Below are positions 38,997 to 42,776 of a DNA stretch of 61,761 bases, one piece after another (position 1 is the stretch's first letter; the number at the start of each line of letters is the position of its first letter). The DNA comes from Clostridiales bacterium. GTDB taxonomy: Bacteria; Bacillota; Clostridia; Lachnospirales; Lachnospiraceae. The stretch spans positions 1 through 61,761 of the forward strand of contig JAJBUL010000237.1 of the NCBI GenBank assembly GCA_020860365.1. The letters run 5' to 3'. The position numbers were made by a program, and so were the translations under genes. A model generated the notes under the pieces. It did not search any database and was not told where the DNA came from. It saw only the letters and a list, made by a program, of their open reading frames with translations.

Positions 38997-39236
38997 TCAA
39001 TCATTTCTCATGTCGTTTGGTTTTGGCTCAACAACAGACCATTTTTCATCCCCCGACTGTACATAATACACCGGTATCTGCCCCACCAGCTCCGGCAGAT
39101 ACCGCAGCATATCTTTCATACCGATCTCCTCGAAATTAAAAAATGTCATTTTTCCAAGGCAATGAAAGCCAGATGCCTCTCGGCAGTACATCACCCACCG
39201 GGATTCTCTGGCAAACAGTCGAGGCACCCTTTTCAT
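38997..39236 (-). CDS. Hypothetical 79-aa protein
   Basis: ATG overlaps the marR stop (TGATG); no recognisable motif. Confidence 0.35.
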   Translation of the reverse strand: MKRVPRLFARESRWVMYCREASGFHCLGKMTFFNFEEIGMKDMLRYLPELVGQIPVYYVQSGDEKWSVVEPKPNDMRND

Positions 39237-39721
39237 CAGGCTCCATCACCACAGTCCGATTCATCTTCCAGCTCTTCCACCACCCGGCAGATTCGCAGCA
39301 GCGCCTCCGCATCTTCCGTTCCCAGGCGGTCTACAAGTCGGGCGATCTCTTCCCGTTTTTCCTTTCTCCGCCGCCCCACACGCTGCTTTCCCAGATCGGT
39401 CAGCTTTACACTCACCCGCCTGCGGTCATACGACGATGTTTCACGAACGATAAGCTGATCCTCTTCCAGTTCGTTGAGTACCGCGGTTACGCGTGGGGTT
39501 GTGACGCGCATATAGTCGCGGAGTTCTCCAGGAGATGTCTGCCCTTCATGCGCATACAGATAGTTGAGAACCATCCCCCGCCCGGAATCCGATTCTCCGG
39601 AATGCTTTCTTCCTCTTCGGCTCGCATGTCTTCTCTGCGTCACGTTCATAATTTCATCAATCAGCTGTTCTCTGTCCATCTTTTCGTCCTTCTTTCTCCC
39701 CATCTGGTTTTGCTCCGTCAT
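39236..39721 (-). CDS. MarR family transcriptional regulator
   Basis: 'VLNYLY...SPGELRDYMRVTTPRVTAVLNELEEDQLIVR...DRRRVSVKLTDLG'; start 39721 or 39679. Confidence 0.88.
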   Translation of the reverse strand: MTEQNQMGRKKDEKMDREQLIDEIMNVTQRRHASRRGRKHSGESDSGRGMVLNYLYAHEGQTSPGELRDYMRVTTPRVTAVLNELEEDQLIVRETSSYDRRRVSVKLTDLGKQRVGRRRKEKREEIARLVDRLGTEDAEALLRICRVVEELEDESDCGDGA

Positions 39722-39791
39722 CCAATCGGCATGTATTTCATCAAAAGTTCTTCTCTCACCCGATCGGTATATACCTCATCAGAAGCGCTTC
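39718..39791 (-). repeat. Diverged tandem duplicate of the last 12 codons of nifH
   Basis: 39791-39756 encodes [11 protein letters not shown], 39753-39718 encodes EELLMKYMPIG*; 27/36 nt identical. Confidence 0.85.
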
Positions 39792-40587
39792 CAGTTCGTC
39801 ATTCGAAATCGGTGTCGGAACGGAAAATTCTGTGTTCTCCGCAATTGCCTGCGCCAGGGAGCGGTACTCGTCCGCCTGCGCGGACTCCGGCGCGTATTCA
39901 ATAACCGTTTTCCGCTGCAGCTCCGCATGCTGTACCAGATTGTCACGTGGAATAAAATAAATCATCCGTGTATTGAGTTTTTCTGCAAAAGCGGTTACAA
40001 GCTCTCTCCTGATCTACCATACGGGAATTGCAGATGAGCCCGCCCAGCTTTGTCTTACCAGTCTCCGCATAGCGCCGTATTCCTCTGCAGATATTGTTTG
40101 CCGCATACAGGCTCATCATCTCGCCCGAACAGACAATATAGATTTCCTTCGCCTTCCCTTCCCGGATGGGCATGGCAAACCCACCGCACACGACATCGCC
40201 CAGGACGTCATAAAGGACATAATCCAGATCCGGCGTGTAAGCGCCGAGATTTTCCAGTAAGTTAATCGCTGTGACAATCCCGCGTCCCGCACAGCCGACT
40301 CCTGGTTCCGGGCCGCCGGATTCCACAGCTTTAATCCCATGAAATCCAGTATAGAGAAAGTCATCCAGTTCTGCTTCATCCTCATCCTTTTCCCGCATCG
40401 TATCCAGGACGGTCTGACGCACATGGCCGCCCAGGATCAATCTCGTGGAATCTGCTTTGGGGTCACAACCCACAATCATCAGTTTTTTCTTATTTTCCGC
40501 CAGAGCGGCCGCCAGATTCTGTGACGTAGTGGATTTTCCGATGCCGCCCTTTCCATAAATCGCGATCTGTCTCATAGATTCATTCAT
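39756..40587 (-). pseudogene. nifH: Nitrogenase iron protein NifH-like (group IV/NflH context), with a 2-nt frameshift in a GA repeat at about 40002-40009
   Basis: '[14 protein letters not shown]', 'GCDPKADST', '[10 protein letters not shown]', '[14 protein letters not shown]'. Adding GA restores [31 protein letters not shown]... and joins ORFs 39943-40587 and 39756-39965. Confidence 0.92.
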
Positions 40588-40598
40588 CCTCTCTTTTC

Positions 40599-42173
40599 TT
40601 ACAGCCCTTCCTGATTCAGCCAGGCGTCCATCGCACCGCCCATCATGTTAAACGCGTCCATCGATTCTACCGGAAACATACTGCCCGGGTTTGGAAGCCT
40701 CACCCAACGAACCTCTTTCTCGACCAATGGCTGCAAATCACTGTCCGCAAAGATCATGCGAACAGACGGCGCATTGGCCCATCTGGCAAAATCATCCTCG
40801 CCGGTCAGCTTCTGATCACCGTTCTCCATATATGCCCTGTCCATCTCGTAAAAGCTAAGAACCCGAATCTTTTTTTCTCCGCGGCGAAGCAATTCCCGAC
40901 GGATGGCGTTTGCCATAAACTGTTCCCCGACAATCAGGATTTCTGCTCCTGTCTCCATGTCGTTTCCTTTTCCCTGTCCTGCATTCGGCTTCCCGACAGT
41001 TTCCACTGATCTGGCTTCCTTCCTCAGATCTTCATCTGCTCTTTCGGCGGTTTCTACTGATCTGATTCCCTTGATCTGCTCTTCATTTGCTCTTCTGGCG
41101 GTTTCCGCCGACCTGATCTCCATACTCTGGCCTTTCGCCAGATTCCCGGCGGCTGCCATCGAACCGAACTCTTTTAGCCTGTTTTTCAATATCTCCACAC
41201 TAGCCGCGCCGAATGGCGCTCCTGCCAGATAAGGAATTCCATATTCACTCTCCATATATCTGGCCAGACGCAGACCGGATTCGCTCACCACCAGGTTCAG
41301 CGCAGCGGCAGGAGCCATCTTCAGATTCTCCGTCGTCTCCTTCCAGCCCCAGCGGGAGAGAATCTGAAATCCTTCCTGCTTCAAAAGCGTTTCCAGATCA
41401 CGAAAAGCCTCCTTTGCCCAATCAATCGTATTTGCGCCAAGGATATTCAGTGAGCCGGGAATCGTCTCGCACGGCGCCAGCAAAAGCCGCCCCATCGCCT
41501 CTAGGGTACAGCCAATCCCGTACAGGTAATCCTTTTCTCCGTCAATCTTCACCGACGCCGCAGGAAGCCCGCTCTGCGTGGAAGCGTCCCCTCGCCGCGC
41601 CCGGCGGCTGGTCGGTTCATCAATAAAAGCTCGCTGCGTGAAGGACGATCCTTCTGTAATCTTCTCCGCCGCATACTCCAGATCCGAACCAATCATAGAT
41701 GCGGACGGGCCATAGGCAAGCAGGACAAAGTTCGGGGAAAGCTGCTTCACACCTTTTTCAAACGCAAGCATCACTTTATTTTCCGTACCCGTAATAATAT
41801 CCTCATTGCGGATGTCCGAATTGAGGACGCGCACTCCGGGAATAAGTCCGCCAAAGCCGCCCCGGCCGCCTCTATGTCCATGGCGGCCTTCTATTCCCGG
41901 TCGACCTTCCTGGTCTGGACGACCAGTCATTTCTGCATATTTGTCTCTATCCAACTTGCCAGCTGCCCACGGACGACCGCCCACGTCAGAGTTGTCATTC
42001 ATCGACGGACGCCTGCCCCGATCCGGCCTTCCATTCCCGTCGCGGCCAAACATAAGCGGCTTATAGGTGCTCGAATCATCGATCAAACCCAGTCCTTCTG
42101 TCTCATTCACTACTGTTTCAAATCCCATCAGATCCGAAAGACAGGGCGGTAACACTTTCCACAATCGCTTCAT
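40599..42173 (-). CDS. Nitrogenase component-1-like (Oxidored_nitro) subunit, Cys-poor, with low-complexity insertions
   Basis: '[16 protein letters not shown]', '[12 protein letters not shown]', 'LNILG', '[26 protein letters not shown]'; adjacent to nifH. Confidence 0.8.
40968..41120 (-). repeat. In-frame 51-bp tandem repeat ([21 protein letters not shown], x3)
   Basis: [17 protein letters not shown] / [17 protein letters not shown] / [17 protein letters not shown]. Confidence 0.75.
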
Positions 42174-42265
42174 ATTATATATGTCTCCTTCTCTTTTCTT
42201 TAATCAAATCCGCCTGTTAAACCATCTGGTCGCAAATCGACGCCCCGGTTTTCCAAAACGCGCTG

Positions 42266-42685
42266 CTACTCATGATCTCCAAACTCCAGATGCGCGTCCT
42301 CAAATATGGTAAGGTCAATGTCATATTCCTGTTTTACCCGTTCCTTCAGCAGTTCACTGTCCGTTGAGAGAATGACCCACTGGCAGCCGCAGGCAATGAC
42401 AAACCGCTTCTCTCCCTGTTCCCTGGAAAGCTCCGCGAGCGCCTCAACGATCTGGTTCAGATAGCGCCCGCTGGAAAAATCGCTCATCGACGGACAAAGC
42501 AGCGCCGCCCGCCCTTCGCGCATCAACGCCCCGATTCTCCGATATGGCTTATGGCGCAGGCAGTTCACAGAGCCCACAAAAAGCAACATTCCCTTCTCTG
42601 ATAGTTCCTCAAGCAAATGATCTCCTTTTCCTCCTCGCTGAGGCATGCGCCCCGCGTCTATGTTTCTATTATTGTCTCTGTCCAT
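42266..42685 (-). CDS. 139-aa single-domain nitrogenase component-1-like protein (N-terminal cluster-binding domain only)
   Basis: 'LFVGSVNCLRH' resembles HGPxGC, 'DFSSGRYLNQIVEAL' resembles DIVFGGEEKL..AI, 'VIACGCQWVILSTD' resembles V.TTC...IGDD; SD GGAGG. Confidence 0.65.
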   Translation of the reverse strand: MDRDNNRNIDAGRMPQRGGKGDHLLEELSEKGMLLFVGSVNCLRHKPYRRIGALMREGRAALLCPSMSDFSSGRYLNQIVEALAELSREQGEKRFVIACGCQWVILSTDSELLKERVKQEYDIDLTIFEDAHLEFGDHE

Positions 42686-42730
42686 TCATTTCCTCCATAT
42701 ACGATAATTGTAAAAAACCGTGCAATTTAT

Positions 42731-42776
42731 TTAATTCACATGAGTTAATCATATCCATTAATTATCCGTTTGTCAA
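42731..42776 (-). promoter_or_regulatory. Sigma-A promoter of the nif-like operon with an overlapping palindromic (MarR-type) operator
   Basis: TTGACA(42776-42771)-N17-TATGAT(42753-42748); dyad TTAAtTCAcaTGAgTTAA at 42731-42748. Confidence 0.65.

Follow-up and report, generated by a model that had tools for sequence, protein, structure and literature searches.

The DNA analyzed here, a 61,761-nucleotide stretch of a Clostridiales bacterium genome (contig JAJBUL010000237.1; hereafter, the whole stretch is called the window), codes on its minus strand for a small nitrogenase-like operon. In the 5' to 3' direction it consists of a 'mini' subunit of 139 amino acids (aa), a large subunit of 524 aa, a nifH-type Fe protein and a MarR-family regulator, in agreement with the order given in the initial annotation of this DNA. 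The operon belongs to a family that is conserved and under purifying selection, not decaying. Based on sequence profiles and structure models, the mini protein is identified as domain I of a NifD/BchN-type component-1 subunit, that is, a D-type partner, and the large subunit as its K-type (BchB/NifK-type) partner. On balance, we favor the view that the operon encodes a MarR-inducible, ATP-driven iron-sulfur reductase acting on a small molecule. As for the substrate, we tentatively suggest, by analogy, a bulky organic compound with toxic properties, a porphyrin- or chlorin-type molecule being the likeliest candidate. The complete picture, in which this would be a half-site enzyme and the smallest known working nitrogenase-type catalytic component, with a D subunit trimmed to a cap for binding the cluster and docking the Fe protein, MarR-inducible and detoxifying porphyrin- or chlorin-type compounds in gut anaerobes, must be viewed as rather doubtful.

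The operon family and its component-1 subunits

A protein search for mini homologues of 76–244 aa returned 68 matches, and a genome scan identified 30 mini loci in Lachnospiraceae, Oscillospiraceae, Floccifex and unclassified Clostridia. The large gene follows the mini gene in 29 of the 30 loci and nifH is present in 28; the missing cases (L019 and L023) stop at contig ends, and in L027 a kinase gene is inserted before nifH. A metagenome scan with one mini protein found nothing, and a scan with the mini alignment found two loci (L073 and L074) with the same gene order. Locus L141, which holds the same genes as L016, was counted once. Five short proteins without genomic context (P0084, P0089–P0091 and P0098) are possible fragments and were left out as stand-alone forms. 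Overall, the mini family is rare, being found in 2 of 401 host-family genomes, the window genome included.

Selection was estimated from the pairwise ratio of nonsynonymous to synonymous substitution rates (dN/dS), using pairs with dS between 0.05 and 1.5. The median ratio was 0.17 for mini (118 of 465 pairs), 0.19 for the large subunit (90 of 435), 0.07 for nifH (117 of 378) and 0.21 for marR (63 of 190), and the window mini compared with four close relatives gave 0.065–0.11. The stand-alone domain-I protein thus recurs beside nifH with dN/dS well below 1, a point on which the initial annotation had proposed a check; the opposite outcome it had allowed for, closest homologues that are all full-length and a truncation unique to this genome, does not agree with the 30 loci. 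These results bear directly on the alternative offered there, namely an operon in decay in which the truncated D subunit is a product of degeneration. In favor of decay are the frameshift in the window nifH, the presence of broken genes in 3 of 33 operons and the rarity of the family. Yet the dN/dS values of 0.07–0.21 speak against decay, as do motifs that stay invariant to the C-terminus in 62 mini sequences, the recurrence of this short version in three bacterial families and a near-identical contig with an intact nifH frame. Decay is therefore rejected for the family and keeps only a very small probability.

The mini protein (42266..42685, minus strand) had been described as resembling only the first Rossmann domain of component 1. 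Both profile and fold searches agree with this description. The protein had no match in Pfam or NCBIfam, a PDB sequence search with the mini alignment gave chance matches only, and Foldseek with the mini structure model returned nothing at E<=0.001, though ChlN ranked first. The model itself has a mean predicted local distance difference test (pLDDT) value of 80.7. Its best fold match among 48,161 chains is the N-terminal domain of ChlN (Z-score 10.2, root-mean-square deviation (rmsd) 2.8 over 108 residues), and the top seven matches are all component-1 subunits aligned over their N-terminal domain. In a HMMER search, the mini profile matched the N-termini of full-length (371–450 aa) PF00148 proteins; a word-based search for longer relatives found none, which is weak evidence since the full HMMER search did find them. 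An Atlas search with the homologue P0001 led to nitrogenase component-1 clusters at 0.89, which we treat as a lead only.

Six residues (C42, R44, H45, C101, D109 and H132) are invariant in the 62 aligned mini sequences, and the C-terminal motif is conserved up to the stop codon. Of the cysteines in the GSVNC and ACGC motifs singled out earlier, C42 and C101 (codons at 42560–42562 and 42383–42385) are invariant, but C99 of ACGC is variable. C42 lies within the motif equivalent to that of NifD C88, and C101 aligns, via full-length PF00148 relatives, with the NifE cysteine of the NifD C154 motif; mini has no equivalent of NifD C62. In the alignment, H132 falls in the loop that follows the final strand of domain I, at what is presumably the NifK Ser188 position.

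The large subunit (40599..42173, minus strand; PF00148, E 5e-19) is a three-domain NifK/BchB-type protein with low-complexity insertions. Much of its 524-aa length is due to such low-confidence insertions, relatives having 385–508 aa. The structure model best matches BchB/ChlB over all three domains (Z-scores 27.4, 27.3 and 25.1; rmsd 2.9 over 350 residues for the top match), followed by K-type chains (Z-scores 20–23) and D-type chains (Z-scores 18–19), and invariant residues are retained in all three domains. The residue at the NifK C95 position is Tyr37 in all 22 sequences, whereas K subunits of the outgroup mostly have Cys. It is this ranking, the tyrosine at the C95 position and the domain-I evidence for mini that together point to a D-type mini and a K-type large subunit. 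The position of NifK C153 is occupied by Pro (P156 in the window), leaving none of the three canonical P-cluster cysteines. The DDSST, GPSAS and PPCLSD motifs reported initially are present as described. However, the Asp ligand of BchB, cited with them as a precedent, does not apply, because its position is the invariant Tyr37.

A cysteine does occur elsewhere in the large subunit, and its location differs between lineages: it is at position 11 in the mini clade (17 of 18 rows), at 34 in sisters with a full-length D and at 157 in L145 and L148. All three positions are inside the predicted mini–large interface, which fits a moving third cluster ligand on the large subunit; C11, D14 and D33 are the window residues of note in the N-terminal part. 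A simple trade-off between C11 of the large subunit and a CxxC motif present in some mini proteins was considered and rejected, as L073, L146 and L147 have both. Separately, low-complexity stretches rich in Gly, Arg and His are found at most family loci: at mini N-termini (window 42685–42620), in domain I of the large subunit (window 42132–41840), towards the C-terminus of full-length D sisters and in a number of MarR proteins.

The initial annotation had proposed modeling the complex. For mini, the large subunit and a [4Fe-4S] ligand, the prediction scored 0.86 and the best control 0.00; 116 of 157 solved complexes attained the mark used, as did 2 of 215 mismatched pairs, and a pass may reflect likeness to solved complexes. 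Runs shared at least 74% of contacts, with partner pLDDT of at least 83. The two subunits are predicted to pair via their domain I surfaces, like NifD/NifK or BchN/BchB, through mini residues 38–45, 61–67, 101–106 and 131–136 and large-subunit residues 1–16, 34–38, 155–161 and 211–215. In the model, the invariant N-terminal arm of the large subunit packs on mini 61–64. Natural mini–large fusions lend independent support to the pairing.

The earlier proposal that mini supplies the Cys ligands of the cluster holds insofar as mini has the only invariant cysteines. Since there are just two of them, C11 of the large subunit is probably also needed, together with a non-cysteine ligand or an open site. 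One could instead imagine a CfbD-like mini homodimer binding a symmetric 2+2 cysteine cluster, the large subunit acting only as a scaffold or substrate binder. C42 and C101 correspond to the positions that CfbD uses symmetrically, according to sections of a recent review (PMC13474568), and the large subunit is devoid of all three canonical cysteines. In the mini–large model, though, the domain I–domain I surface is already occupied, one-to-one fusions exist and the sister systems are D+K pairs, which makes a homodimer very improbable.

Truncation history and the Fe protein

Full-length sisters of the mini system are available for comparison. L142, L143 and L144 have the same operon with a full-length D subunit of 409–431 aa, L142 also with marR. 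The trees used here were all of the quick or FastTree kind, their only branch support being SH-type values. The K subunits of these sisters and the mini-associated K subunits form one clade (support of 100 in the Shimodaira–Hasegawa-like approximate likelihood ratio test, SH-aLRT), which contains, as separate lineages, the window clade (98), a second short-D group made up of the pair L145 and L148 (100), and the fusion P0081. The third group with a short D comprises L059, L060 and P0115 and is split over two well-supported branches of the domain-I tree. Because the short-D groups separate in the K and domain-I trees, domains II–III of the D subunit have been lost at least twice and probably three times. 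In addition, domain I is naturally fused to K in P0081, P0115, L060 and L061. The last two (L060:5488-7913 and L061:5233-7658; 528 aa) and the 150-aa domain-I-only D gene of L059 (L059:6047-8618) are located in operons of Fe/heme/B12-type importers. L145 (2731–5070) consists of marR, a short D of 154 aa and K, and its genome also harbors L142, the operon with a full-length D, nifH included.

The nearest outgroup in both the K and domain-I trees is made up of Firmicute NifHEN-like systems with 2+1 cysteines. Among other nitrogenase-like loci, L066, L067 and L069 have H-D-K genes followed by hypF/hypD/hypE-like genes, L066 and L067 with a second nifH-like gene too; such a hyp-gene context has been described in sections of PMC3464626. 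L071 (6355–9500) is a nif-like cluster with a nifB-like gene, in which nifH and the D gene are both in pieces.

The third gene of the window operon (39756..40575, minus strand; alternative start 40587) is a Fer4_NifH member that had been taken as intact. Its P-loop and both [4Fe-4S] cysteines are indeed present, upstream of a frameshift that had been missed: the open reading frame (ORF) is cut short after 214 aa, with the final ~80 residues encoded in a different frame that ends at the natural stop at 39756. The break is a loss of two bases in a GA run near 40001, which is nine bases long in L001–L006, L009 and L010 and seven in the window. Of the contigs retrieved from sequencing runs (shares of 0.12 or less, no RNA run listed), none spans the operon; one of 151 bases, from run X2 (depth 2, one other difference), has two more bases at 40001 and an intact frame. 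As none of the 22 other testable genes of the window genome is frameshifted, the evidence leans towards a real mutation rather than an assembly error. As assembled, the window copy of the operon would be inactive, barring an assembly error at this site or slippage back into frame. There is no support for programmed phase variation of nifH, the GA run having only 8–9 bases in L001–L010 and being absent elsewhere.

Intact NifH proteins of the family score 437–452 bits against TIGR01287 (cut-off 394), whereas five NflH proteins of the outgroup stay under it at 303–349 bits. Their identity is 62–73% to canonical-type clostridial NifH and 41–57% to outgroup NflH. In the NifH tree, a check proposed at the outset, they form one clade (96–97) that groups with canonical NifH (98–99 SH-aLRT), in particular with nifH genes of nifI–nifD clusters. 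Loci with a full-length D fall among mini loci in this tree with low support, unlike in the K and domain-I trees. A family nifH, ~70% identical to nitrogenase NifH, would count as a nitrogen fixer in nifH surveys; this pseudo-nifH problem has been described in part of PMC8597730.

The same scores and grouping might be taken to indicate a true or alternative nitrogenase. Speaking against it, the mini–large pair has no domains for binding the iron-molybdenum cofactor (FeMo-co) and only two of six P-cluster cysteines, and nifB was found in none of the 21 genomes tested, so that a nitrogenase is practically refuted. For nifB, the absence noted earlier for the window extends to the whole window genome (best 30 bits, cut-off 344) and to 0 of 20 relative genomes over the cut-off, assemblies being incomplete; in these incomplete assemblies, a single PF00148 gene exceeds the cut-off in 18 of 20 family genomes. 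The window genome has two other nitrogenase-like loci, each with its own full-length component-1 pair. One (C270:5463-12340) combines a nifH-like gene with a full-length pair of component-1 genes and with genes for an Fe/B12-type ABC importer. The other (C131:2894-11958) codes for two full-length subunits, a probable radical-SAM protein, a sulfonate/nitrate-type ABC transporter and MetK, and adjoins hemA/hemC/cbiK-like genes (labels assigned by eye from the sequences).

Operon layout, regulation and neighbors

The sigma-70-type promoter TTGACA-17-TATGAT (42748..42776, minus strand), put forward initially, matches the consensus at 11 of 12 positions and is the top one of nine sites found; identical hexamers precede the mini gene in L001–L008 and L010. 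Just upstream, the terminator-like hairpin of a uvrA-like gene ends at 42786. The gap of 92 bp between the mini and large genes is as previously reported. A weak terminator-like hairpin lies 3' of marR (39070..39090, minus strand; consensus match only), in a search that found seven hairpins versus 4.3 expected by chance. The marR gene (39236..39679, minus strand; PF12802/PF01047) belongs to an ORF that opens at 39721, and its Met15 (39679) has a better ribosome site and agrees with the start in relatives.

An 18-bp palindrome, TTAA-YT-N6-AR-TTAA (42731..42748), shares its first base with the last base of the -10 box and spans the likely start site. With no more than one mismatch, it is present upstream of mini in 17 of 20 marR-bearing loci versus none of the 13 without detected marR, four of which are cut by contig ends. 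L011–L016, close relatives of L001–L010, have neither marR nor the palindrome. Judged from this co-occurrence, the palindrome is likely the MarR operator through which MarR represses the promoter, although it may also be a general MarR-type site. Elsewhere in the window genome (C286:6492-10710), a different marR is followed by an ABC-exporter pair split into four ORFs, with the exact palindrome in the promoter. In L017 (13–2615) and L019 (5316–8336), the mini start coincides with the stop codon at the end of a gyrA-like gene, and mini has no promoter or palindrome of its own.

Directly upstream of the window operon is an 850-aa UvrA-like ATPase (42928–45480, minus strand; UvrA models have 924–943 positions), a neighborhood not kept in relatives. 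Next comes a run of two MFS transporters, a class I/II aminotransferase and two SIS-domain proteins (45513–51793, minus strand). Just downstream of marR is a peptide-type ABC importer, its binding protein carrying a twin-arginine translocation (TAT) signal (32796–38499, minus strand); it is likewise not conserved beside the operon in relatives.

In the neighbor survey of family loci, no enzyme gene co-occurs with the cassette and no sulfur-metabolism neighbors recur. One MATE orthologue (68–70% identical) comes after marR in L002, L003, L005–L008 and L018, and one ABC-exporter orthologue (54–62%) flanks L027, L029 and L074. A siderophore-type ABC importer is directly upstream in L001–L006 and L008, and modABC is downstream in L017, L021 and L022.

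Two further explanations hinge on these neighbors. According to one, the operon is an electron-donor module: NifH and the mini–large pair would generate an ATP-driven, low-potential electron at an exposed cluster and pass it to a separate protein, so as to activate another metalloenzyme reductively or repair it, with no small-molecule site of their own. The repeated loss of the D-side pocket, which would expose the cluster, is in line with this idea, as is the lack of a co-occurring enzyme gene in the survey. Its weak points are the invariant residues kept in all three domains of the large subunit and the dedicated MarR and efflux neighbors, which suggest a small-molecule trigger; we consider it unlikely. 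The other explanation is metal or cofactor handling, in which an imported metal chelate (siderophore, heme or corrinoid) would be reduced to release or process the metal. Here one can point to the siderophore-type and modABC importers just listed, to the truncated lineage L059–L061 inside an Fe/heme/B12-type importer operon, and to full-length relatives beside Fe/heme/B12-type ABC importers or hydrogenase maturation genes (compare the sections of PMC3464626 on gene context). Still, the importers are clade-specific and of varied kinds, none is found at the window and most loci, and a promoter of its own, preceded by a terminator-like hairpin, serves the cassette. Metal handling is thus quite unlikely.

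Proposed mechanism and comparison with known systems

In the favored model, an ATP-driven reductase, the mini–large interface would hold a simple [4Fe-4S] cluster ligated by C42 and C101 of mini and C11 of the large subunit. The fourth ligand would be a non-cysteine residue (D14 of the large subunit, H132 or H45 of mini), unless one iron stays open. The NifH dimer would dock onto the domain I surfaces of the two subunits and supply low-potential electrons upon ATP hydrolysis. Such docking would explain why only domain I of the D subunit is retained, the sole role left to mini being that of a module for docking and cluster ligation. The site for the substrate might be either the space freed by the loss of D domains II–III or the cleft of the large subunit. 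MarR would repress the operon via the palindrome until an inducing small molecule binds, and this inducer could be the very molecule that is reduced. The guess of a tetrapyrrole derives from dark-operative protochlorophyllide oxidoreductase (DPOR), chlorophyllide oxidoreductase (COR) and CfbCD, which reduce tetrapyrroles, and from PefR, a MarR protein that answers to porphyrins. As set out in sections of PMC2858704, PefR is a porphyrin-sensing MarR controlling efflux pumps. The tetrapyrrole reactions of DPOR, COR and CfbCD, systems of the [4Fe-4S] type with known substrates, are covered in sections of PMC13474568.

A number of observations weigh against this model. L145 has no nifH beside its short D and K genes. 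No cysteines other than the two of mini are universal: L030 and the P0081 fusion have neither C11 nor the alternatives at 34 and 157. The contacts given by the complex prediction are protein contacts only. Frameshifts affect 3 of 33 operons (nifH in the window and in L016, the large gene in L013), compared with none of 22 other genes of the window genome and 1 of 37 flanking genes. On the regulatory side, the palindrome motif was derived from the same loci in which it was counted, and kin loci are not independent; it is absent from the marR-bearing L017, L021 and L022 and from the sister loci L142, L145 and L147, about 12 loci have no marR, and the one further exact copy of the palindrome in the genome lies ahead of an ABC exporter beside a different marR. 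Efflux neighbors occur in ~11 of 32 loci, representing few independent lineages, and not beside the window operon; MATE and ABC exporters are common in any case, with 15 and 23 tblastn matches in the window genome. Finally, the DPOR substrate pocket is in the FeMo-co region, which mini has lost (sections of PMC13474568).

With full-length sisters and fusions at hand for comparison, this naturally selected one-domain subunit indicates how much of the scaffold cluster binding and Fe-protein docking require, and it offers a small NifB-free system for studying ATP-coupled electron transfer. Within the sections of the 2026 review that deal with these systems (PMC13474568), component-1 subunits are full-length, and substrate assignment is named as a main open problem, with gene context of little help. 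The co-encoded MarR and its candidate operator provide a direct route to the substrate. Our literature searches returned no description of a domain-I-only subunit, although the supplementary sequence sets of PMC3464626 and PMC13753814 may include members.

The component-1 Rossmann fold predicted for both subunits and the adjacent NifH-type ATPase (28 of 30 loci) place the system in the nitrogenase superfamily. It differs from the true nitrogenases of Groups I–III in having two of the six P-cluster cysteines and no D domains II–III, as well as in lacking the nifB and nifE/N complement (no nifB in 21 of 21 genomes, from incomplete assemblies). In its regulation it resembles autoregulated MarR operons, combining a marR gene with an inverted repeat over the promoter, the operator being predicted.

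Among characterized enzymes, DPOR (BchL/BchN/BchB) and COR of Group V provide the best fold matches of both subunits; they too are independent of NifB and have an asymmetric cysteine supply, mostly from the D-type subunit. In contrast to mini, with one domain and two cysteines, BchN is full-length with three, and the position of the BchB Asp ligand is Tyr37, so that the three-Cys plus Asp/Cys pattern is not present. The Fe protein is NifH-like rather than of the BchL/BchX type, family NifH reaching 219 bits against the BchL model TIGR01281 (cut-off 345) and 204 against TIGR02016 (cut-off 331). CfbCD (Group IV-B) is similar in that C42 and C101 are at the CfbD cysteine positions (NifD C88 and C154; sections of PMC13474568), and by analogy a simple [4Fe-4S] cluster would be expected in the mini–large pair. 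However, CfbD is a full-length homodimer in methanogens, whereas a short and a long subunit are combined here, and family NifH misses the cut-off of the CfbC model (396 and 381 versus 402).

Methylthio-alkane reductase (MAR; MarBHDK, Group IV-C) also occurs in Clostridia, and some members use a NifH-close Fe protein (Group I NflH), a precedent for the pairing seen here (sections of PMC13753814). Yet MAR depends on P- and L-type clusters as well as on MarB or NifB, none of which is possible in the mini–large system. The Group VI nitrogen-fixation-like (NFL) systems of Elusimicrobia share with it at most four of six P-cluster cysteines and the absence of FeMo-co ligands and NifB, and a tetrapyrrole substrate has been proposed for them (sections of 10.1101/765248). 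The features that define Group VI are a NifH clade placed as sister to Group V and the presence of radical-SAM neighbors; family NifH groups with canonical NifH, in trees without Group VI sequences, and passes TIGR01287, which argues against membership. Closest by descent are the Firmicute NifHEN-like systems with two alpha cysteines (C88 and C154) and one beta cysteine (C95), which adjoin ABC transporters or hydrogenase genes (Dos Santos 2012, sections of PMC3464626). Compared with these systems, mini has the same two D-subunit cysteines but consists of domain I only, beta C95 is replaced by Tyr and C11 is new, the Fe protein is of the canonical type, and MarR takes the place of the ABC-importer or hyp context.

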